DNA from: a virus
Lineage: Duplodnaviria > Caudoviricetes
Virus record (IMG/VR): IMGVR_UViG_3300023108_000002
Length of the DNA stretch: 64,000 nucleotides
Strand: one strand, 5' to 3'
Shown: in pieces, positions 1,110 through 64,000 of the stretch
How positions within the stretch are numbered: position 1 is the first letter of the stretch
Layout: each line of letters begins with the position of its first letter
Notes under the pieces: model-generated
Told to the model about the DNA's origin: nothing
Seen by the model: only the letters and a program-made list of their open reading frames with translations
Databases searched by the model: none
Program-made: the position numbers and the translations under genes

Positions 1110-3650
1110 TTATCCTTTAAACGGTGCTGTTGGTATGTTTGTAGTTTCATCTTCTGCACTGTATCTTGCATAATTACTTATTCTTAGATCTTGAACATAA
1201 CCATGATAAGGCCAATTAATACCTGTAGCACTAGAGTATTCACCTCCAATTATTATATGGTCTTTATCATAAGTAGTTGTTTTAGTACCAGATTGAGTGC
1301 TTCGTACACCATCAATCCAAGCTCTAAAAACATTACTAGAATCTCTACACACCGCTATATGATACCAAGTTCCTGTGCTCATAGCACCTGCTGCTCTAGA
1401 GAAGTTTATGTATCCACTATCATATATATCTACTCCAGTTCCGTTTGAATTAATTCTCATTTCAAGTTGATAATTTTCTAAACACCAAACATATCCAGAA
1501 TTGAACGTACTTGTATTAACCCAGCATTCTATTGTCAATTCGCCTGGAAGATAAATTTGGCTGTAGTGTCTTATATGATTAGGATTTGAGCCGGGGAAAT
1601 ACATTGATTTTGTATTAGCAAACTTAGCTTCAGCTGATGAACCTGTTGCAGTGCCAAAAACTTTCATATTGCCTGTTTGAGCTTTATCTATAACAGATGC
1701 GTCTGTGCCTTTAACATGTAATACAGAATTTGTAGTGCTCTGTGGTGCTGTAGGTACAGTAATAGTAGAAGCTGTAGCATCAAACTGACTCGTGCCGACC
1801 TCATACTTAAAATCTGCAATAGTTCCCATTGCTGAATTCATTGCGGTGCCTGTTGATTCTCCAGCATAACCTACATAAAAATTAGCTAAACCAGACGCTG
1901 ATATATTAATATTAGAAGTTGTTGTATTACATCTTTTTCCGTTTAAATAGTAAGATAAAGAGCCTCCGCTTCTACAGAACGCAATGTGATTCCAAGCATT
2001 AACCTGAACAGTGCTGTTTGTTTTTCCAGAAGCCATATCTGCATAATTTGGATATCCCCATCTTACATCTAATTGACTACCACTTTGATATAATATGTCC
2101 CAGCCAGGACAGTTTGTCGGATATGAAACATAATTAGCATCTCCGACAAGTTGTCTAGTAGTGCCTGGAGATGTTGTTGGATAATACCAAAATGAAACAC
2201 AGAATGGATCTGTGCCTGATGGTTTTAGTGTGCTGGAATGTGGAACAGAAAGATAATCATTGTCATTGGGCATGGAGACAGACCCACCGTGATCGCTTGC
2301 TGAGTATTCTAAGTTGTCGTAAGGGCCGAATGGTTTTGTTGAAGTATTGCCGTTTACTGTGATTGAGAGAGCGCTAGAAGAACCATCTGCTATATATGGA
2401 AGGTGGCAAGCAAGAAGTTGTGTATTTGTAATTGCAGTTAAGTGTGCGGTTGGTGGAGTGAACGCAGCAGAATATACAGCGGCACCTTTAACAAATCTAA
2501 AATCAGCAATATAACCAGTGAAATGTCTATTTACGGTAGTATTTGAAGAAGCCCCAATACGGATATTACTACCTCCTGTGGTAGATGCAGTTATTGAGGA
2601 TGTGTAATTCTGAACACCATCAACATAAGCTGTAACTGTTGTTCCACTGTTCGTAATTACCCAAGCAAGATGATGCCAATTACCATCATTTATTGTACTA
2701 ACTCCTGTATTGGGTGGATTATTAATCCAACCGGCTGAGTTTGAATAAAAAACTTGATAGCCGTTGTATAATCCAACTTCCATTCCGTTGTAGGGAGAAG
2801 ATGGATCAAAATTACTAAATATTGCAACGTGTCCAGTTACTGTCGTATTTACCCACGCTTCGATTGTTGTGTTTGATGTTTCGGGGAGAAGGTTAGTTGC
2901 TGTGGCAGATAGCTGTAAATAATCTGATCCATCGAAGTAAGTGCTATATCCACCATGCCGATATGGACTAAACGTACCTGCATGAGCATCGCCGTTTGCT
3001 GTGATTGTATGGTTGTTAACTGAACTATCGGTTATATTGTTGTTGTCTGATGTATCTACTGCTGTTGCTAAAAGAGTTGTATAATTACTGTTTGCAATAA
3101 AAAATTCCAGAGTGATTGATGTATTTGCATTCACTGCTCCACTAACACCATCAGTTGCATTAATTGTAAGAGTAAATGTTCCGAAATTAGCTTCATCGGT
3201 GCTAGGTGTAATAGTAAATACATTATCCGTTTGACTTATCGTAGCAATACTACCAAGTCCAGATGTTGAATAACTCCATGTCAAAGGGAATCCTTCAGGG
3301 TCTGTAGAAACCCCTGTGATTACAGTAGGTGTTCCATCTATAGCAAGCGAATAAGTTCCATCTACTCCAGTGATTGCACTTGGAGAATCGTTTTGAACAG
3401 TTGCCACTTTATACCAACCAGTACCAGAATAGATATAAAGATTATTGTTTGCTTGAACGAATACTTGGTCACCATCAGTCATTCCAGTTTTTGCAATCAG
3501 TGCAGCCATATCTGCAACAGTCGAAACTGATGAACTGCCAGCCGCCGCGGCCCTCCATACTGTTTTTGTTGCATTGTATGTATATGTAACACCATTCGCT
3601 ACATGCGTATCACCGTCTACTGGACTATTTGGAAAATTTACTGCTGCCAT
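1110..3650 (-). CDS. Fibre/virion protein with LamG (concanavalin A-like) domains
   Basis: MAAVNFPNSP N-terminus and the shared DPEG.PLTWSY module, then three LamG-like repeats (TIEAW, WHHLAW, WNHIAF, WYHIAV, GYIADFR). Confidence 0.85.
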   Translation of the reverse strand: MAAVNFPNSPVDGDTHVANGVTYTYNATKTVWRAAAAGSSSVSTVADMAALIAKTGMTDGDQVFVQANNNLYIYSGTGWYKVATVQNDSPSAITGVDGTYSLAIDGTPTVITGVSTDPEGFPLTWSYSTSGLGSIATISQTDNVFTITPSTDEANFGTFTLTINATDGVSGAVNANTSITLEFFIANSNYTTLLATAVDTSDNNNITDSSVNNHTITANGDAHAGTFSPYRHGGYSTYFDGSDYLQLSATATNLLPETSNTTIEAWVNTTVTGHVAIFSNFDPSSPYNGMEVGLYNGYQVFYSNSAGWINNPPNTGVSTINDGNWHHLAWVITNSGTTVTAYVDGVQNYTSSITASTTGGSNIRIGASSNTTVNRHFTGYIADFRFVKGAAVYSAAFTPPTAHLTAITNTQLLACHLPYIADGSSSALSITVNGNTSTKPFGPYDNLEYSASDHGGSVSMPNDNDYLSVPHSSTLKPSGTDPFCVSFWYYPTTSPGTTRQLVGDANYVSYPTNCPGWDILYQSGSQLDVRWGYPNYADMASGKTNSTVQVNAWNHIAFCRSGGSLSYYLNGKRCNTTTSNINISASGLANFYVGYAGESTGTAMNSAMGTIADFKYEVGTSQFDATASTITVPTAPQSTTNSVLHVKGTDASVIDKAQTGNMKVFGTATGSSAEAKFANTKSMYFPGSNPNHIRHYSQIYLPGELTIECWVNTSTFNSGYVWCLENYQLEMRINSNGTGVDIYDSGYINFSRAAGAMSTGTWYHIAVCRDSSNVFRAWIDGVRSTQSGTKTTTYDKDHIIIGGEYSSATGINWPYHGYVQDLRISNYARYSAEDETTNIPTAPFKG

Positions 3651-39634: not shown

Positions 39635-40225
39635 ATGGCAAATAACGTATATGCAACATTAACTTTACATCAAGGAAATGATGAAGTAAAGCAATGGTGG
39701 AAAGACTTAGTAAGTAAAATGACATATCCAGAAGATGAGAGGCCCTCTGAATATGATTTTTACAAACCAATTCATGAAATGTTTTGGACAGATATAGATG
39801 AAGAATTTACAAGCACCAGAGGTTGGTATATTGACAATATTGGTGCAAAATGGTGTAACATTCAAGATGCCGATGATGAAATGTTATCTACATGTTCTGC
39901 CTGGGATATTCCAGAATATCTCTATGAAAGAATTGCAGAAGAGGCATATGAGGTGGATAAAAATGCAATCTTCACAGTTTCGTATGAAGATGAAATGCCA
40001 AACTTTTTTGGTTCTTCTGTGTATTTTGGTGGAGAATGTTTTGAAGATATTCGTCTTGAGTCAGATGATTTTGAAGAATATGACTTGGAATTTTATTGGG
40101 ATGAAGATGAAAAGGGCGAAGAACAGCCAGACGATTGGGAAGCCTCATGGGAACAGATGAATAACTTACAGTGGGATTGGATCGAAGAGGCCATATCTAA
40201 CATTCAGTTTGAGTTGGATGTATAA
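39635..40225 (+). CDS. Acidic protein, possibly YubB/Api92-like ferredoxin fold
   Basis: WYIDNIGAKW...CSAWDIP...VSYEDE resembles the W...WGTKW...TAW.PP pattern. AGGAG RBS. Confidence 0.55.
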   Translation: MANNVYATLTLHQGNDEVKQWWKDLVSKMTYPEDERPSEYDFYKPIHEMFWTDIDEEFTSTRGWYIDNIGAKWCNIQDADDEMLSTCSAWDIPEYLYERIAEEAYEVDKNAIFTVSYEDEMPNFFGSSVYFGGECFEDIRLESDDFEEYDLEFYWDEDEKGEEQPDDWEASWEQMNNLQWDWIEEAISNIQFELDV

Positions 40226-41400
40226 TGAGAATTGAACCAGAGTTAAAACTTGATTACAGTAGTGTCCTTATTCGACCAAAAAGAAGTGCTTTGACAAGTC
40301 GTAAAGAAGTTGATCTCACACGAAGGTTCATATTTAGAAACTACAGACCAACATATACTTCGTCTGAACTTCCACATGGATATCCAGCACATAAAGATTA
40401 TCATTATGAAGGCATTCCTATCATGGCTGCTAATATGGATGGTGTTGGAACATTCAAGATGGCAGATGTTTTGGGTAAATTAGGATTGTTTACTTGTTTA
40501 AAGAAAAATTATAAAGTTCCAGAGTTGGTGGATTTCTTTGATAATCCAAACTATCCATGGCGTCCTACACATACAGCATATTCTATGGGCATTGTGGAAG
40601 AAGATTTGAATAAGTTTCGCAAAGTTTATGAAATGACAGATAATAAAATATCATATGTCTGCGTGGATGTGGCAAATGGATACACAGAGAGATTTGTCAA
40701 TTTCATATCAGAACTGAGAAGCACATTTCCAGAATTAGTAATTATTGCCGGTAATGTAGTTACAGCAGATCAAACACAGGAGTTAATACTAAATGGAGCA
40801 GATATTGTCAAAGTTGGGATCGGGCCTGGTTCAGTTTGTACGACCCGTATACAAACTGGTGTTGGTTATCCTCAATTATCCGCAGTCATTGAGTGTGCGG
40901 ATGCTGCTCATGGGCTTGGTGGGCATATTATTGCTGATGGTGGTTGCACAACTCCTGGCGACATAGCCAAAGCATTTGCTGGTGGCGCAGATTTTGTTAT
41001 GTTAGGCGGAATGTTTGCCGGCCATAATGAAGGGGGTGGTGAAATCATTGAAAAATGGTATGAGACAGATGAGGTATTGGTTTATGCCACTAAGAATGAT
41101 TTTACTACACCAACCAAGAAATCGATTTATTCCAAACAATTTGTGCATTTTTATGGAATGAGTTCAGAGACTGCAAATAGAAAGCATTCTGGTGGATTAA
41201 AGAACTATCGTTCATCAGAAGGTAGAGAAGTAATGGTTCCATATCAGGGCCCCGTAGAAATGACTGTTCAAAATATTTTGGGTGGTATTAGGAGCACTTG
41301 TACTTATGTTGGAGCGTCAAAGCTAAAAAGACTAAGTAAGTGTACAACCTTTGTTATGTGTCAAGATACTCATAACCGAATCTACGAAGGGAAAAATTAA
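40225..41400 (+). CDS. guaC: GMP reductase
   Basis: [57 protein letters not shown]. Confidence 0.93.
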
Positions 41401-46752: not shown

Positions 46753-47724
46753 ATGTTTAGATTTTTTAAAGAGCGAAAGTGGTTATTATGGAGTTGGATT
46801 GGTTCCGCAATAATCTTATCATCACTTTGGGTACAAGTACAAATTGATGTAAAAATTAATGAATGGTTTGGACAGTTTTACGACATGATCCAAAGGGCAT
46901 TAGCAGAACCTAATGCCATTACAATAGGAGAATATTGGGCCAGTCTAGCGTCCTTTATTACACTCGCAGCAATATATGTTGCAATTGCAGTCGCAATATC
47001 GTTTTTCACAGCACATTATCTGTTTAGATGGCGAACCGCAATGGTAGAATGGTATCATTCTGTCTATGATAAGGCTAGAACTATCGAAGGTGCTGCTCAA
47101 CGTGTGCAAGAAGATACTATCAAGTTTAGTAGAATTATGGAAGGCCTTGGTACTAGTTTTATTGAGTCCATTATGGTATTGATACAATTTGTGCCTATTT
47201 TACTTGGATTGAGTGTGGGAATTCCCATCTTTTTCTTTGGTGATTGGCAATACGGACTTGTAACAGGTGCATTAGTCTGGTCGATTGGGGGCACATTATT
47301 CCTCGTTGGGTTGGGATGGTTGCTGAGACTTGTAGGTGTTGAATATGACTTGCAAAAGAAAGAGGCTGCATATCGTAAAATTCTGGTGATTGCAGAGGAC
47401 GATGAGACAGTCAGGCCTAAAACTATTGAAGAATTGTTTGAAGGTGTCAGAGGCATTCATTTTAAATCCTATATAAGATACCTATACTTCAATATAGGTA
47501 GAATTGCATACTTACAGGCAAATGTCTTGAGTGCTTATGTGTTTCTTGCCCCCGCTATTGTTGCTGGTGCAGTCACATTGGGTGTAATGCAACAAATTAT
47601 TCGGGCGTTTGGTAGAGTAGAAGGTTCTATGCAGTATTTACTAAAAGCATGGCCTACCATTATTGAATTAATGAGTGTCTACAAACGACTAAGAGAATTT
47701 GAAAGACAGATACAGGAGAAATAA
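46753..47724 (+). CDS. sbmA: SbmA/BacA-family peptide transporter (short form)
   Basis: HYLFRWRTAM, IEGAAQRVQEDT, EAAYRK, YFNIGRIAYLQ, ELMSVYKRLREFE all match SbmA. Confidence 0.92.
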   Translation: MFRFFKERKWLLWSWIGSAIILSSLWVQVQIDVKINEWFGQFYDMIQRALAEPNAITIGEYWASLASFITLAAIYVAIAVAISFFTAHYLFRWRTAMVEWYHSVYDKARTIEGAAQRVQEDTIKFSRIMEGLGTSFIESIMVLIQFVPILLGLSVGIPIFFFGDWQYGLVTGALVWSIGGTLFLVGLGWLLRLVGVEYDLQKKEAAYRKILVIAEDDETVRPKTIEELFEGVRGIHFKSYIRYLYFNIGRIAYLQANVLSAYVFLAPAIVAGAVTLGVMQQIIRAFGRVEGSMQYLLKAWPTIIELMSVYKRLREFERQIQEK

Positions 47725-48192
47725 ATGAACAGTAAATTTAGCATTGGCGTTGTCATTGCTATTGTTCTACAGGTAAGTGCCTTTGTGTGGTGGACTGCAC
47801 AACAGGCACAAACCATAGATCAACTAGAAGGGCAAGTCGCCGAACTCACTGCAAAGAGTAAAATAGAAAAAGAAGTAACTCTTATTAATGATGTGAAGCA
47901 GCTGAGAAAAGAAGTTGACAAAATGAAAGAAGATATTTTGTCAAGTTTAACTAGTATTGATGATATGAGAATATCAGAAGATAATAGGTTGGGTGAATAT
48001 ATTGATCGGATATATGATGGTTTGATCAGCGACCTACAGGCAACTTTTGCAAAACATGAAGATTGGATTGATGAATTAGATAGTGATGTTGATGCAGTAT
48101 ATGTACATATTGATACACAATTAAAAGATTTAGATAAAAAACTAAGCGATAGGATTAGAGATAATGGCGGCCAAAACGAGCAAACCAAATAA
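47725..48192 (+). CDS. Single-TM coiled-coil protein
   Basis: N-terminal hydrophobic helix, then heptad repeats. Confidence 0.75.
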   Translation: MNSKFSIGVVIAIVLQVSAFVWWTAQQAQTIDQLEGQVAELTAKSKIEKEVTLINDVKQLRKEVDKMKEDILSSLTSIDDMRISEDNRLGEYIDRIYDGLISDLQATFAKHEDWIDELDSDVDAVYVHIDTQLKDLDKKLSDRIRDNGGQNEQTK

Positions 48193-48832
48193 AAAGAAAA
48201 AAGAAGAAGAAAAGATTGATTTGATTCCAAATACAATCACTCAAACTCCACCACCAGAACCAATGCCAAGAGACCTGACATTTGAAAAACAGCCAGGCAC
48301 TGTATTGAAAGAAAATGGTATTCTCTTTATGGATAAGGAGTTCAATCAAGAAAATTGTATGCCATTAGTAAAAATGATTATGGAATATAATTTGATGCCC
48401 GCACCCAAAAGGCCTCCGATTATTCATCTATATATCAATTCGCCAGGCGGAGAGGTTGCATCTGCATTTCATCTTATAGATGTAATAAAACAGTCAAAAA
48501 TACCAGTTTATACCTATGGAATGGGCTCTATAGCGTCCTGTGGTGTGCTGCTAATGATGAGTGGAGAGAAGGGACACAGATACCTAACACAGAACACAAG
48601 CATCATGTCGCATCAATACAGCTGGGGGTCAAAGGGCAAGGAACATGAATTATATGCGAAAATAAAACAATTTGAAATCTCTTCAGAGAAATTAGTTGAA
48701 CATTATGTCAAGTGTACTGGAAAAAAGAAAGATTATATCAGAAAATATTTATTACCAGAGTCTGACATATGGATGACACCAGAAGAAGCAATAAAACATG
48801 GGATTGCTGATAAAATTATAGAAACTTATTGA
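48164..48832 (+). CDS. clpP: ClpP-family serine protease
   Basis: LYINSPGGEV, GSIASCG (catalytic Ser), IMSHQ (His), ESDIWMTPEEAIKHGIADKI (Asp). Confidence 0.9.
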   Translation: MAAKTSKPNKKKKEEEKIDLIPNTITQTPPPEPMPRDLTFEKQPGTVLKENGILFMDKEFNQENCMPLVKMIMEYNLMPAPKRPPIIHLYINSPGGEVASAFHLIDVIKQSKIPVYTYGMGSIASCGVLLMMSGEKGHRYLTQNTSIMSHQYSWGSKGKEHELYAKIKQFEISSEKLVEHYVKCTGKKKDYIRKYLLPESDIWMTPEEAIKHGIADKIIETY

Positions 48833-58039: not shown

Positions 58040-58525
58040 ATGGAAAATCAGAATCAAAATAAGAAACTTTGGAAAAAGGTAAAGAAAATGGATTTAGGAA
58101 ACCCTGCCGTCACGGCACTAGTAGGTCTGGTAATATTCTATATCGGATTAAAAACATTCTCTGGGGGCATGAAGGCCATGGGAAACATGGAGCATCTTTC
58201 GTTTTTCTTGGGAAATCCACTGTATATGTTCTTTGGTGGAATCATCATGACTTTGTTGTGGCAATCGTCAAGCTTGAGTACAACCGCCATCATTGCGTTG
58301 GTTGCGTCTGGTGCCTTGCCGCTTCCGGCAGCGATTGGAGCAGTTCTAGGAGCGAACATCGGAACAACAGGAACCATCTGGCTTGCGGGAATTTTTGTTT
58401 CTGATGGCATGCCGAAGGGAGACACACTACGAATTGCGATGGCACATACAGGAGCGAACCTTCTAATGGCTATCATGTTGTTGCCGTTTGTTGGCCAGAT
58501 TGCTAAATATTTGAGCAAATTTTAG
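58040..58525 (+). CDS. Na/Pi cotransporter family protein, single repeat (half-size)
   Basis: LWQSSSLSTT...LGANIGTTGT signature, about five hydrophobic segments. Confidence 0.85.
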   Translation: MENQNQNKKLWKKVKKMDLGNPAVTALVGLVIFYIGLKTFSGGMKAMGNMEHLSFFLGNPLYMFFGGIIMTLLWQSSSLSTTAIIALVASGALPLPAAIGAVLGANIGTTGTIWLAGIFVSDGMPKGDTLRIAMAHTGANLLMAIMLLPFVGQIAKYLSKF

Positions 58526-60565: not shown

Positions 60566-61000
60566 ATGGTTCACTTCGACAATTTATATGTCTCTGGTTC
60601 CGGCTCTCGCAAAAGAAAACTCGCATATCAAGTTGCTGAGTTCGTAAAATCTCAAATTTTCCCTAGAACACAAGGTGTGATGCTGGAAATTCAGCTCATT
60701 TCGAAGCTTTCTGAGAAAGAAGGCGTCCTTGGCGATTGTATGGATGAAGATGATCGCGAATATACAGTCAGAATTGATAGTTCTTTGGATAGAGAAACTT
60801 TTATCAAGACTCTTTGTCATGAATTAGTTCATGTAAAACAATATGCAAAGAATGAACTACGTCAAATTACTTTCAAAACACACAAATGGCATCGTAAAAC
60901 TTTGATGGGCGATCTAGAATATCATGAGCGTCCTTGGGAAATCGAAGCATTTTCAATGGAAGATGAATTAGCTGAAAAATTTGGAGAAAATAATGAGTAA
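60566..61000 (+). CDS. HEXXH zinc metallopeptidase-like protein
   Basis: TLCHELVHVKQY...PWEIEAF. Confidence 0.85.
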   Translation: MVHFDNLYVSGSGSRKRKLAYQVAEFVKSQIFPRTQGVMLEIQLISKLSEKEGVLGDCMDEDDREYTVRIDSSLDRETFIKTLCHELVHVKQYAKNELRQITFKTHKWHRKTLMGDLEYHERPWEIEAFSMEDELAEKFGENNE

Positions 61001-61322
61001 AATGGGAAATTATGTTGTAGAATTAATGGAAACTGGACTTTGGGAAGAGGACGAAAATCCTTCTGAACCAAATTTTGATGAATATTATAGCGAACAGCTG
61101 TCTAGATTCAAGCATGAATTGAGAGATTGTATGCAATCTAGAAATATTACTTGGAAAGAGGCACTAACTTTTTTATATCAAACCGAAGAAGATGATTATG
61201 AACTCTTTGATATAGAGGAAGATGCATATTGTTACCAAAAACTTGAACATTTTCTTTATAAATGGGATTTACAGGAAAGAAAAATTGATGAAATATGTAA
61301 AAAATTCTTCATTAGCCCTTGA
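60993..61322 (+). CDS. Acidic hypothetical protein
   Basis: GGAG RBS; overlapping gene run. Confidence 0.7.
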   Translation: MSKMGNYVVELMETGLWEEDENPSEPNFDEYYSEQLSRFKHELRDCMQSRNITWKEALTFLYQTEEDDYELFDIEEDAYCYQKLEHFLYKWDLQERKIDEICKKFFISP

Positions 61323-61358
61323 CTTCTTTGCTCAAATGACTTATATTAGTAGTGTAAG
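61315..61358 (+). promoter_or_regulatory. Early promoter cassette, copy 3
   Basis: 44 nt identical to 58532-58575; TTGACT-17nt-TATATT. Confidence 0.9.
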
Positions 61359-61386
61359 GTAAAAAAACATAGGAGATTCTTACGTT

Positions 61387-61812
61387 ATGGCATATGTTTC
61401 ACAAGACATGAAAAAAGCTCTTGCCCCTGCAATTAAAAATGTACTAAAACAGTACGGTATGAAAGGCACGATTGGTGTTAACAACCATTCTTCTTTGGTT
61501 GTGAATATTAAAGAAGGTGTTCTTGACTTGATTGGAATTGCAAATGCAAAAAATCAAGAGATTGCTGAACGGCGGAATATGCCTTACTATGAATGTAACG
61601 GATACTTTCAGGCAAATCCCTACCATTCCGATCAATATGGAGAAGCTTCTTCTTTCTTTGAAGATTTGGTTGCGGCAATGAAAGGTGCGTTTACAAACGG
61701 TGGTCCCAAATGGTATGATAACAGTGATGCAATGATTGATTACTTTGATACTGCATACTATTTGGACATCAATGTTGGAAAATGGAACAAGCCTTACGTT
61801 TGTACGGCTTAA
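61387..61812 (+). CDS. Conserved phage early protein (D.M.DYF motif)
   Basis: AGGAG RBS; DNSDAMIDYFDTAYYLDINVGKWNKPY. Confidence 0.8.
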   Translation: MAYVSQDMKKALAPAIKNVLKQYGMKGTIGVNNHSSLVVNIKEGVLDLIGIANAKNQEIAERRNMPYYECNGYFQANPYHSDQYGEASSFFEDLVAAMKGAFTNGGPKWYDNSDAMIDYFDTAYYLDINVGKWNKPYVCTA

Positions 61813-61829
61813 ACAATAAGGAGTGATAT

Positions 61830-61988
61830 ATGTGGTATGTTCAGTATGAACTTGCTGATGGTTCAAATGAAACTTTTCGATATGAGGGCTTGACACAAGA
61901 GCAGGCGCGTGAAATCCATCGTCAATGGTCTGGTTGGAACACCAAATATGTCCAATCAGGAAGGATGGATTTAGGATATGGTAAATAA
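61830..61988 (+). CDS. 52-aa hypothetical protein
   Basis: AAGGAG RBS; MWYVQYELADGSNETFRYEGL... Confidence 0.7.
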   Translation: MWYVQYELADGSNETFRYEGLTQEQAREIHRQWSGWNTKYVQSGRMDLGYGK

Positions 61989-62193
61989 AATACAGCGCAT
62001 GGTCGTCCCGCTAATGGACGAATTGCAATGGTGCATGGAGAACAACGCACACTTGGAAGACCCCGATAGGGTCTCTGCTATAATTGATAGGGTCAGTATC
62101 TATATTGCACATTTAACAGATGAAGATAGTGACTATCTACATGCTGCTCAAGATGCGATAGAGGAAGGTCGCGAATGGAACGTGAAGAAATAA
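61978..62193 (+). CDS. Hypothetical protein
   Basis: Overlapping gene run; DSDYLHAAQDAIEEGREW. Confidence 0.7.
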   Translation: MVNKIQRMVVPLMDELQWCMENNAHLEDPDRVSAIIDRVSIYIAHLTDEDSDYLHAAQDAIEEGREWNVKK

Positions 62194-62333
62194 CACAGTT
62201 AAAAGAAATTCGTGATGTTTTTTTAAAAATGTATCATGAAACTAAAAAACCTGATATAAGTATTGATATGTCTTTTTTAAGGCTTCATAATATTATATCA
62301 AGATTAGAAGAGGATACATTAAATGGCAGATAA
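62175..62333 (+). CDS. 52-aa hypothetical protein
   Basis: Fills the gap with overlaps on both sides; MEREEITQLKEIRDVF... Confidence 0.55.
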   Translation: MEREEITQLKEIRDVFLKMYHETKKPDISIDMSFLRLHNIISRLEEDTLNGR

Positions 62334-62517
62334 AGAAATTTCTATTAGAGTTGGAAAACTTTATTCTAAAGGACTTGATTATGATGATGCTCAGAAAGAA
62401 TTTTTGAGCCATGCTTCTGATAAAGAAAAATCATTATTAGAAAATCAATTTGATGAAGTTTGGAATGAATATGAGCACATGTATCTTTCAACTCTTTCTT
62501 TTATGAGTAACAAATGA
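62323..62517 (+). CDS. Hypothetical protein
   Basis: GAGG RBS; gene run. Confidence 0.7.
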   Translation: MADKEISIRVGKLYSKGLDYDDAQKEFLSHASDKEKSLLENQFDEVWNEYEHMYLSTLSFMSNK

Positions 62518-62708
62518 GCATAGATTATTACGCAGACAAATTATATGATGTGCAGATAGATACCGTAAAAGGAGATGTTATTTTAGGTGGTGTTTTCTTT
62601 ATAGAAGATAGTCCAAAAGAGGCATATATTTTTGAGCGAGCTTACATTATGGGAAGAGAACATAAAAAAGCTCAAGTGATTAATATTCTTTCAAAGAAAA
62701 CTTCTTGA
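62514..62708 (+). CDS. Hypothetical protein
   Basis: ATGA coupling. Confidence 0.65.
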   Translation: MSIDYYADKLYDVQIDTVKGDVILGGVFFIEDSPKEAYIFERAYIMGREHKKAQVINILSKKTS

Positions 62709-62733
62709 CAGAATCGGAGTTATTTGATATAAA
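62705..62733 (+). promoter_or_regulatory. Sigma70-type promoter for the tRNA cluster
   Basis: TTGACA-17nt-TATAAA, 8 nt before tRNA-Arg, with GAATC right after the -35. Confidence 0.8.
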
Positions 62734-62741
62734 GAAAATAT

Positions 62742-62818
62742 CCGCTCGTAGATCAACTGGATAGATCAACTGACTTCTAATCAGTAGGTTGAGGGTTCGA
62801 GTCCTTCCGAGCGGGCCA
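62742..62818 (+). tRNA. tRNA-Arg(UCU)
   Basis: CCGCTCG/CGAGCGG acceptor, GATC D-stem, ACTGA-CTTCTAA-TCAGT anticodon arm, GGTTCGAGTCC, encoded CCA. Confidence 0.95.
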
Positions 62819-62831
62819 GATAAATAGGGGA

Positions 62832-62937
62832 GACTACTAGGAAGAGGTAGAAACCAGTAAGGCAGAAATGGTTCTGATTTTATTGAAGCGACCTGAATCC
62901 CCTCAAACCGCGCACCAGAAAGGAACACCTAGTAGTC
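62832..62937 (+). ncRNA. Candidate structured RNA or 5' leader
   Basis: Perfect 10-bp closing stem GACTACTAGG/CCTAGTAGTC with internal hairpins, preceded by GATAAATA at 62819-62826. Confidence 0.5.
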
Positions 62938-62960
62938 GTTAATTTAGAAAGGATAATGAA

Positions 62961-63260
62961 ATGGGTGTAACACCATCGACAGGAATGCCATTTGATGTTT
63001 ATCAAGTGATGCAGGCGACAATGTATGGAACTCCACAAGCTCCACATTATCCTAATAGTGAAAATGTTAGACCCCCAGCGGGTAAAGATTCAAAACGTGT
63101 AGTAGAACCATCTACAAGGACTGATGTAAATATAGATGTTTTACGAAGATGGGTTGAACAAAAAGATAGAATTGATGATAGTTTAGAAGATCTAAGACTT
63201 AGGACTTATTTCAATAAAGAACAAATTGAACAAGGAGCAATCTTAGATATAGAAGTTTAA
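62961..63260 (+). CDS. Hypothetical Pro-rich protein
   Basis: AAAGGA RBS; 99 aa between tRNAs. Confidence 0.75.
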   Translation: MGVTPSTGMPFDVYQVMQATMYGTPQAPHYPNSENVRPPAGKDSKRVVEPSTRTDVNIDVLRRWVEQKDRIDDSLEDLRLRTYFNKEQIEQGAILDIEV

Positions 63261-63334
63261 GCGGGTATAGCATAGTGGTAATGTTACAGCCTTCCAAGCT
63301 GAAGATAGGAGTTCGATTCTCCTTACCCGCTCCA
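63261..63334 (+). tRNA. tRNA-Gly(UCC)
   Basis: GCGGGTA/TACCCGC acceptor, CAGC-CTTCCAA-GCTG anticodon arm, GTTCGATT, CCA. Confidence 0.95.
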
Positions 63335-63363
63335 AATAAAAATCCATGGCGACGGCCTATGGA

Positions 63364-63513
63364 TTGTGGTGACTGAATAAGTGGTAAGCGTGCCACTAAG
63401 GTATACACAAAGAGGGTAGCACCCTGTCTTAGCGGATGCAGTGTAGTTTGAAAGCGAGTTAGCCCGAGCGCTCAGTGCGAGTAGATGTAGGTAATCGGTA
63501 ATCCTACCCACAA
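63364..63513 (+). ncRNA. manA-motif-like structured RNA
   Basis: TTGTGG/CCACAA closing stem. The 5' GGTGACTGAATAA, internal TAAGGT and 3' GGTAATCCTACC segments resemble the marine/cyanophage manA motif as I remember it. Confidence 0.6.
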
Positions 63514-63521
63514 CTTATAAA

Positions 63522-63598
<77 letters not shown>

Positions 63599-63610
63599 AA
63601 CAGAAATTAT

Positions 63611-63685
63611 TCCGGCGTAGCTCAGCGGTAGAGCAGTTGACTGTTAATCAATTGGTCGTAGGTTCGATCCCTACCGCCGGAGCCA
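63611..63685 (+). tRNA. tRNA-Asn(GUU)
   Basis: TCCGGCG/CGCCGGA acceptor, GTTGA-CTGTTAA-TCAAT anticodon arm, GGTTCGATCCC, CCA. Confidence 0.95.
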
Positions 63686-63698
63686 GAAAGAGGCAAAA

Positions 63699-63986
63699 AT
63701 GTATAAACCTTTACCTGATAGCGTTACTATTAAAAAATCTGAAATCAATGGATTAGGACTCTTTGCAGTTGAACCTATTAAGGAAGGAACCGAAATAGGA
63801 TTGTCTCATTTTTATTGGGGCGATCAGTTACAGAGAACACCTTTAGGTGCTTTCTATAATCATTCCGAAGAACCTAATATCTTAAAGGTTCAAAGGGATA
63901 GTAGATTCTTTATTGTGGCTACAAGAGATATTTTGCCAGATGAAGAAATAACATGTAGATATACTTTTTATAATGTGGAGAAGTGA
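63699..63986 (+). CDS. Minimal SET-domain protein
   Basis: SEINGLGLFA, FYNHSEEPN, ATRDILPDEEITCRY. Confidence 0.85.
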   Translation: MYKPLPDSVTIKKSEINGLGLFAVEPIKEGTEIGLSHFYWGDQLQRTPLGAFYNHSEEPNILKVQRDSRFFIVATRDILPDEEITCRYTFYNVEK

Positions 63987-64000
63987 AAATGACTCGTTAT

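Follow-up and report, generated by a model that had tools for sequence, protein, structure and literature searches.

Our analysis points to a manA RNA that is probably a phage-encoded, free-standing and dispensable non-coding RNA of a compact subfamily, and for which we propose release from a tRNA operon and self-assembly. It is encoded near the end of the window, by which we mean the whole 64,000-nucleotide stretch of viral DNA that was analysed (Caudoviricetes; IMG/VR record IMGVR_UViG_3300023108_000002). Catalogues continue to list manA among the cis-regulatory riboswitch candidates, and even a 2026 preprint on manA cages does so. For the compact subfamily, tRNA sandwiches, stand-alone units, interchangeable neighbors and natural deletions make a free RNA much likelier. 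The manA family itself and its adjacency to tRNAs are already in print; our analysis adds the compact UAGC subfamily with its pattern of loop pairings, units in which manA stands alone, alleles that have lost it, and the mosaic composition of the window copy.

With respect to identity, the Rfam manA model (RF01745) matched positions 63344-63517 of the window over model positions 1-192, with 51.8 bits and an E-value of 5.3e-12 in an E-value search. This is narrowly below the gathering score of 55.2 bits, and a gathering-level Rfam scan of the region returned tRNAs only; standard annotation thus misses the compact manA of the window because its score lies just under the cut-off. The points are probably lost in the P4 junction, which has one hairpin fewer than the model, and this would account for the sub-threshold score. 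Among the subfamily homologs that were scanned, 12 lie above the RF01745 cut-off (57.9-65.2 bits), and a model built from the compact subfamily retrieves the long cyanophage manA with E-values of 1e-7 to 1e-11. The core sequences UGACUGAAUAA, UAAGGU and GGUA...AAUCC are all present in the window copy and in this order, as is the multi-junction manA fold of P1, P2, P3, P4, P8 and P9, with covariation (P8 by inspection only). Judged from its sequence, the element is a genuine folded RNA and a compact form of the manA family. The preliminary description of this DNA had likened the element to manA, and Rfam and homolog support as well as covarying helices, whose absence it had named as grounds for rejection, were found. 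YrlA, Plastid-ycf2 and TCL6 also appeared among the Rfam matches, as tRNA overlaps or by chance, and two small minus-strand ORFs (63211-63408 and 63323-63511) are not genes, as indicated by their tRNA overlap and the structural pattern of change. A blastn search of cultured phage genomes returned nothing for the window manA RNA, nor for L004.

The element is approximately 172 nt long and starts near 63342 (Table 1). The earlier estimate of approximately 150 nt, counted from 63364, was wrong, as the P1 hairpin corresponds to manA model positions 1-20 and belongs to the element; likewise, the 5′ end that had been predicted at 63364 is rather to be expected at about 63335-63342. The impression that the element was shorter than the usual form proved correct, since the core from P2 to P2 measures 147-153 nt as compared to 164-170 nt in cyanophage copies. 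All hairpins and stems named at the time sit where they had been placed and every pair in them is canonical, but P4, P6, P8 and the L3-L8 and L8-L9 pairings had been overlooked.

Table 1. Features of the window and of its manA RNA. Loop numbers were mapped onto the window copy from the text, not the figures, of Ren et al.
Feature	Position	Strand	Remarks
IMPDH/GMP-reductase-family gene	40225-41400		~22 kb from manA
SbmA/BacA transporter gene	46753-47724		
ClpP protease gene	48164-48832		
Short Na/Pi-cotransporter domain protein gene	58040-58525		
Putative sigma-70-type promoter	62705..62733	+	TTGACA-17-TATAAA, read from sequence
tRNA-Arg(TCT)	62742..62818	+	First gene of putative operon, ~500 nt upstream
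tRNA-Gly(TCC)	63261..63334	+	CCA encoded, 7 nt upstream of P1
Compact manA RNA, whole element	63342..63513	+	RF01745 full-length, 51.8 bits; 141 bits with subfamily model, window copy itself being in the training set
P1 hairpin	63342..63364	+	GACG tetraloop 63351-63354; ATCCAT 63342-47 pairs ATGGAT 63359-64; RF01745, RNAalifold, covariation
P2 5′ strand, closes core	63365..63369	+	TGTGG pairs CCACA 63508-63512; compensatory changes
Near-invariant UGACUGAAUAA segment	63370..63380	+	AC pairs GU of UAAGGU at 63397-63402
P3 hairpin	63381..63396	+	AGTGG 63380-84 pairs CCACT 63393-97; loop L3 63387-63391, complementary to L8 63468-63472
P4 junction	63404..63445	+	Two UAGC-loop hairpins, subfamily hallmark; per-sequence pairing
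P5 UAGC hairpin	63413-63425	+	AGGG 63413-16 pairs CCCT 63422-25
P6 UAGC hairpin	63426-63437	+	RNAalifold, homolog comparison
P8	63447..63486	+	GAAA/GAGUA internal loop, 21-nt L8 (63456-63476); sequence and homolog comparison
P9 hairpin	63487..63507	+	GTAGG 63487-91 pairs CCTAC 63503-07; L9 UCGG 63495-63498
tRNA-Pro(TGG)	63522..63598	+	8 nt downstream of manA
tRNA-Asn(GTT)	63611..63685	+	
SET-domain protein gene	63699-63986		

The fold was evaluated on homologs obtained by pattern scans of viral and metagenome contigs, which gave 116 matches to the compact subfamily, the window included; the alignment set comprised 53 distinct full-length sequences, among them the divergent L146. A loose search pattern yielded mostly chance matches, and seven genome-contig matches as well as L121, L186 and L226 were dropped as chance matches on inspection. 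In a sequence-only MAFFT alignment of the 53 homologs, 95.5% of the cells of the named structure pair; the corresponding values are 77.9% for shuffles and 33-49% for slid controls. Compensatory changes affect 21 of the 29 pairs of this structure. RNAalifold, run unaided on the sequence-only alignment, returned P1, P2, P3, P5, P6 and P9; of the 33 pairs that it predicted, 24 show compensatory changes. Because P4, P8 and L3-L8 are misaligned from subgroup to subgroup in the MAFFT alignment, these were tested sequence by sequence; P4 and P5 pair in all of the 23 parsable haplotypes. The GACG loop of P1 is present in 52/53 homologs, while the 48/48 count for the second UAGC loop holds by construction, this loop having been built into the search pattern. 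The GAAA/GAGUA internal loop of P8 would appear to be loop-E-like. The single-sequence folding energy is no better than that of shuffles (z -1.14 and -0.25) and is uninformative; it is covariation, not folding energy, which in this comparison of homologs shows the element to be more than chance.

Aside from the compact subfamily, there is a third manA-like subfamily (L016, L018, L045, L059, L085 and related loci), which reaches 25-35 bits with the compact-subfamily model. It has a core of ~157 nt, an extra helix closing around P1, a P1 loop that alternates between UAGC and GACG, and no tRNA nearby.

Beyond its helices, the compact RNA carries two loop-loop complementarities. In each of 19 distinct combinations, L3 can pair with the 3′ portion of L8 over 5-7 bp. 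When 13 distinct L3 loops were scored against a fixed partner window, the cognate value was 13.7 as compared to 8.9 for non-cognate combinations (p about 1e-5), and for the weaker L8-L9 complementarity (3-5 bp) it was 10.4 as compared to 9.6 (p 0.02 with the fixed window, 4e-4 when the cognate loop picked the partner window), p values that in all cases ignore kinship among the sequences. In the window copy, L9 UCGG is complementary to L8 CCGA (63464-63467), which replaces the commoner UCCU/AGGA. The L5-L7 pair (GUGGU/ACCA), in contrast, is found in 0/48 compact sequences as opposed to 15/15 long cyanophage sequences, and inspection of the UAGC loops revealed no Watson-Crick partner for them.

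These loops are of interest because in a cryo-EM study of five manA RNAs, all formed closed oligomers (8-, 10- and 60-mers) through L3-L8′, L8-L9′ and L5-L7′ kissing contacts; the pairs formed in trans differ between variants, and both solved pentamer types use L5-L7 (Ren et al., bioRxiv 10.64898/2026.07.01.735769). The cages were obtained in vitro only, at about 3 mg/mL. On balance, we lean towards the view that compact manA self-assembles as well, in which case copies would build a small closed oligomer by means of kissing loops (L3-L8 and L8-L9), much as other manA RNAs do in vitro. Without L5-L7, assembly of the compact subfamily may differ or fail to form. Since a GACG loop makes a two-base-pair kissing loop in MuLV RNA (PMC5874298), it may be speculated that the GACG and UAGC loops provide two-base-pair contacts, and the alternation of the two in the P1 loop of the third subfamily hints, equally speculatively, at loops serving as interchangeable contact modules.

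The strongest competitor to self-assembly is that the free RNA acts as a monomer which binds a protein or a metabolite. L3-L8 and L8-L9 would then form pseudoknots within one molecule, as they could, and cage formation would be a trait that other subfamilies show in vitro. This would be in keeping with the compact subfamily having neither the L5-L7 interface nor the L6 GNRA hairpin, and with the variation in which loops pair in trans between the solved variants. However, every manA tested oligomerized, and did so via non-identical interfaces, and the two interfaces that are retained here, L3-L8 and L8-L9, are each intermolecular in one solved variant. We regard a monomer as possible, though not as the likelier outcome. 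As the RNA would be free in this case too, the monomer reading partly coincides with the explanation that we prefer.

The free-RNA reading itself starts from the window locus. As the preliminary description had seen, manA is placed between tRNAs, with tRNA-Pro and tRNA-Asn next and no ribosome-binding site (RBS) for it to control: there is neither a start codon nor an RBS between manA and tRNA-Pro, no sense-strand terminator was found within 61000-64000, and the nearest ORF downstream begins 186 nt on, behind two tRNAs. We consider it highly probable that the RNA is free and is cut out by tRNA processing. It would be co-transcribed in an operon of tRNA-Arg, an ORF, tRNA-Gly, manA, tRNA-Pro and tRNA-Asn from the promoter-like site at its head, which the consensus promoter scan did not call because it demands a final T. 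By standard bacterial tRNA maturation, RNase P would cleave where tRNA-Pro begins (63522) and thereby set the 3′ end of manA, while 3′ maturation of tRNA-Gly would cut the A/U-rich spacer after 63334. The released RNA of 172-187 nt, with its ends tucked into P1 and P2, would fold around the invariant UGACUGAAUAA/UAAGGU core. As to its role, we tentatively suggest that it resists nucleases and, alongside the phage tRNAs and tmRNA, serves during infection as a decoy or scaffold for a host factor of an RNA-binding or anti-phage kind. The earlier proposal of a free RNA is supported, for the window copy as well as for its subfamily, by gene context, by units in which manA stands alone and by its natural losses; release would be brought about by tRNA processing.

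Other non-coding stretches were noticed in these operons. In the window, a second structured element (62832-62937, plus strand) with a perfect 10-bp closing stem lies between tRNA-Arg and a 99-aa ORF. An Rfam search returned no match for it and its fold z is -1.9; 11 viral loci carry homologs whose closing stem is compensated and which have internal motifs in common (about two haplotypes, with thin covariation), which makes it a candidate for an uncatalogued non-coding RNA. At L155 (about 3491-3590, minus strand) and 15 similar loci, which represent the closest syntenic phages, a 101-nt insert with a long closing helix is found between manA and tRNA-Pro; it has no match in Rfam at gathering level and is a candidate non-coding RNA as well. 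Furthermore, L155 and L164 carry a non-coding stretch of 110-135 nt right after tRNA-Arg, which is absent from the window and from L255/L256.

A survey of gene context, which had been proposed as a check, argues in the same direction for the homologs, whose loci were selected by RNA sequence and not by neighbors. A tRNA or tmRNA stands directly beside manA in 74 of the 97 subfamily loci with enough flank and in 22 of 31 distinct contexts. In 12 of these 31 contexts manA is followed by a tRNA, of six amino-acid types in all, and in another 12 by an ORF; a tmRNA comes next in one and other features in six. The downstream ORFs are mutually unrelated, and their RBSs lie beyond the closing helix. 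On the tree, near-identical cores stand before tRNA-Thr, tRNA-Met, tRNA-Asn, tmRNA, different ORFs or a terminator. Some copies, read by eye, are stand-alone units, with the order terminator, promoter, manA and terminator-like hairpin in the L071 group, and stop codon, manA and terminator-like hairpin in L037. At L001, manA precedes a GMP-reductase-like gene, with a remnant of a tRNA-Thr that is intact in L240, L004 and L008. It appears that this placement arose by deletion of the intervening tRNA-Thr, which shows how the arrangement "5′ UTR of a nucleotide gene" can come about accidentally.

Some of these loci have features of their own. L002 carries a hairpin-rich non-coding region directly before manA (200 nt upstream), and manA is itself followed by a two-piece tmRNA, which amounts to an RNA-only operon. 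In L166, L170 and L228, manA is followed by a tRNA-Gly whose anticodon was read as ACC, and L159 has a tRNA-Ser(ACT) upstream. A34 anticodons of such tRNA-Gly(ACC) and tRNA-Ser(ACT) types are rare in bacteria.

manA has also been lost naturally. Sister phages, whose SET protein is 75-77% identical, have the same Arg-Gly-Pro-Asn operon without it. L255 and L256 display a 29-nt scar of which the first 17 and the last 7 nt match the flanks of the window's manA, and in L257 and L258 a 9-nt spacer takes its place. Since these phages lack manA in the same operon, manA is dispensable, and the tRNAs downstream of it have persisted in its absence.

Context and losses together bear on the possibility that manA is a cis-acting stability or processing element, the tight fold of which blocks nucleases and protects or organizes the neighboring transcript, with no independent life. 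It often opens a transcription unit or lies between two cistrons, which would suit such a function, and a compact pseudoknotted fold would be expected to resist exonucleases. However, tRNA maturation at the window locus would sever manA from both of its neighbors, the L071 and L037 groups are without an evident neighbor to protect, and the neighbors persist in phages that have no manA. We therefore regard this explanation as unlikely.

Less likely still is the catalogued model, according to which manA is a riboswitch or another cis-regulator and here would control tRNA-Pro, tRNA-Asn and the SET-domain gene via termination or processing. manA was rated cis-regulatory, and a probable riboswitch, upon its discovery (Weinberg et al. 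2010, PMC2864571). Invariant unpaired bases could shape a ligand pocket, several manA copies begin right at a promoter, and the long cyanophage copies that were sampled stand 23-59 nt before ORFs, with no tRNA within 1.5 kb. A riboswitch, however, would precede a protein gene as part of its 5′ UTR, with an RBS or terminator as the expression platform, whereas the window copy has tRNA-Pro behind it and no such platform, and its nearest ORF lies beyond two tRNAs. Moreover, what stands downstream is unrelated from copy to copy and changes freely across the tree, sister operons retain the same downstream genes without manA, and the IMPDH/GMP-reductase-family gene of the window is far away. The preliminary argument against a riboswitch is supported for the compact subfamily, by its contexts and losses. 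It does not carry over to the long cyanophage form, which may have a cis role at genes that we take, from their N-terminal sequences, to be gp32-like or transaldolase-like.

At L024, L054 and other long-form loci, manA lies 39-59 nt before an ORF of 290-300 aa, which presumably resembles T4 gp32. T4 gp32 is autoregulated via a leader pseudoknot.

The window copy is a mosaic, in that its P1 is 92% identical to that of the syntenic L155/L157 group, while its core shares 97% identity with L003 but 64% with L155. As far as can be judged from these identities, the pattern is consistent with L3, L8 and L9 having moved as one block when sequence was exchanged at the invariant core. That manA is a selfish or neutral passenger, moved among tRNA arrays by recombination, as the mosaic and its repeated loss could suggest, is the least probable reading, because covariation in every helix and the loop-loop pairings show selection on the fold, and no mobility gene or flanking repeat is evident beside manA.

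The window belongs to a large tailed phage, as seen from baseplate-wedge and tail-fibre matches, and a protein search with its SbmA revealed no close cultured relative. A JGI contig that is identical over an overlap of 6302 nt continues with tRNA-Thr, tRNA-Leu and a two-piece tmRNA (tag ANDNFAPSEFALAA) 3.5 kb downstream. Because of this two-piece tmRNA, and because loci related to the window match the alphaproteobacterial tmRNA model, the host is probably alphaproteobacterial. In L259 (9535-9934, beyond the end of the window), the two-piece tmRNA has an intervening segment of ~85 nt that forms a long hairpin, as compared to 5 nt in L002.

In a literature search of incomplete coverage, we found no paper concluding that manA is a free RNA; Ren et al. 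label it cis-regulatory, and the text of their preprint is without any mention of tRNA (10.64898/2026.07.01.735769). Since the free-RNA reading is much likelier for the compact subfamily, self-assembly in the cell becomes plausible. The compact form, being without the sole interface common to both solved pentamers, is a ready test of the assembly rules, and sister phages with and without manA in the same operon offer a natural comparison. It is conceivable, although rather doubtful, that compact manA is an abundant free RNA from the tRNA operon which forms a protein-free closed particle in infected cells and serves as a decoy or container, with homotypic UAGC/GACG contacts replacing L5-L7. If this were true, manA would be a class of phage RNA nanocage genes that has been misfiled for 15 years as a riboswitch candidate.

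In comparison to known systems, the window RNA shares with RF01745 manA (PMC2864571) the GACG-loop P1, P2, the UGACUGAAUAA...UAAGGU core, P3, the P4 junction, P8 and P9, as well as the L3-L8 complementarity and the setting in marine T4-like phages, and tRNA-flanked examples were already contained in the 2010 discovery alignment (Weinberg et al., PMC2864571). Unlike cyanophage manA, the compact form is ~20 nt shorter, which is accounted for by its P4 junction, where two UAGC-loop hairpins take the place of three in the cyanophage form, namely those with GUGGUG, GNRA and ACCA loops; also unlike known manA, its phage probably has an alphaproteobacterial host. Like the oligomers of Ren et al., it possesses the L3-L8 and L8-L9 complementarities, which covary and constitute sequence prerequisites only. 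It differs from them in having neither L5-L7 pairing nor an L6 GNRA hairpin, a comparison based on the contacts that they describe. GOLLD and ROOL are cage-forming phage RNAs that are encoded near tRNA islands and multimerize via kissing loops, and ROOL is non-essential (10.1101/2024.12.08.627333). Their covariance models gave no match up to an E-value of 10, and the window RNA is not a member of either family. Nevertheless, compact manA would work like GOLLD and ROOL, which are several times longer, as a phage non-coding RNA encoded near tRNAs.
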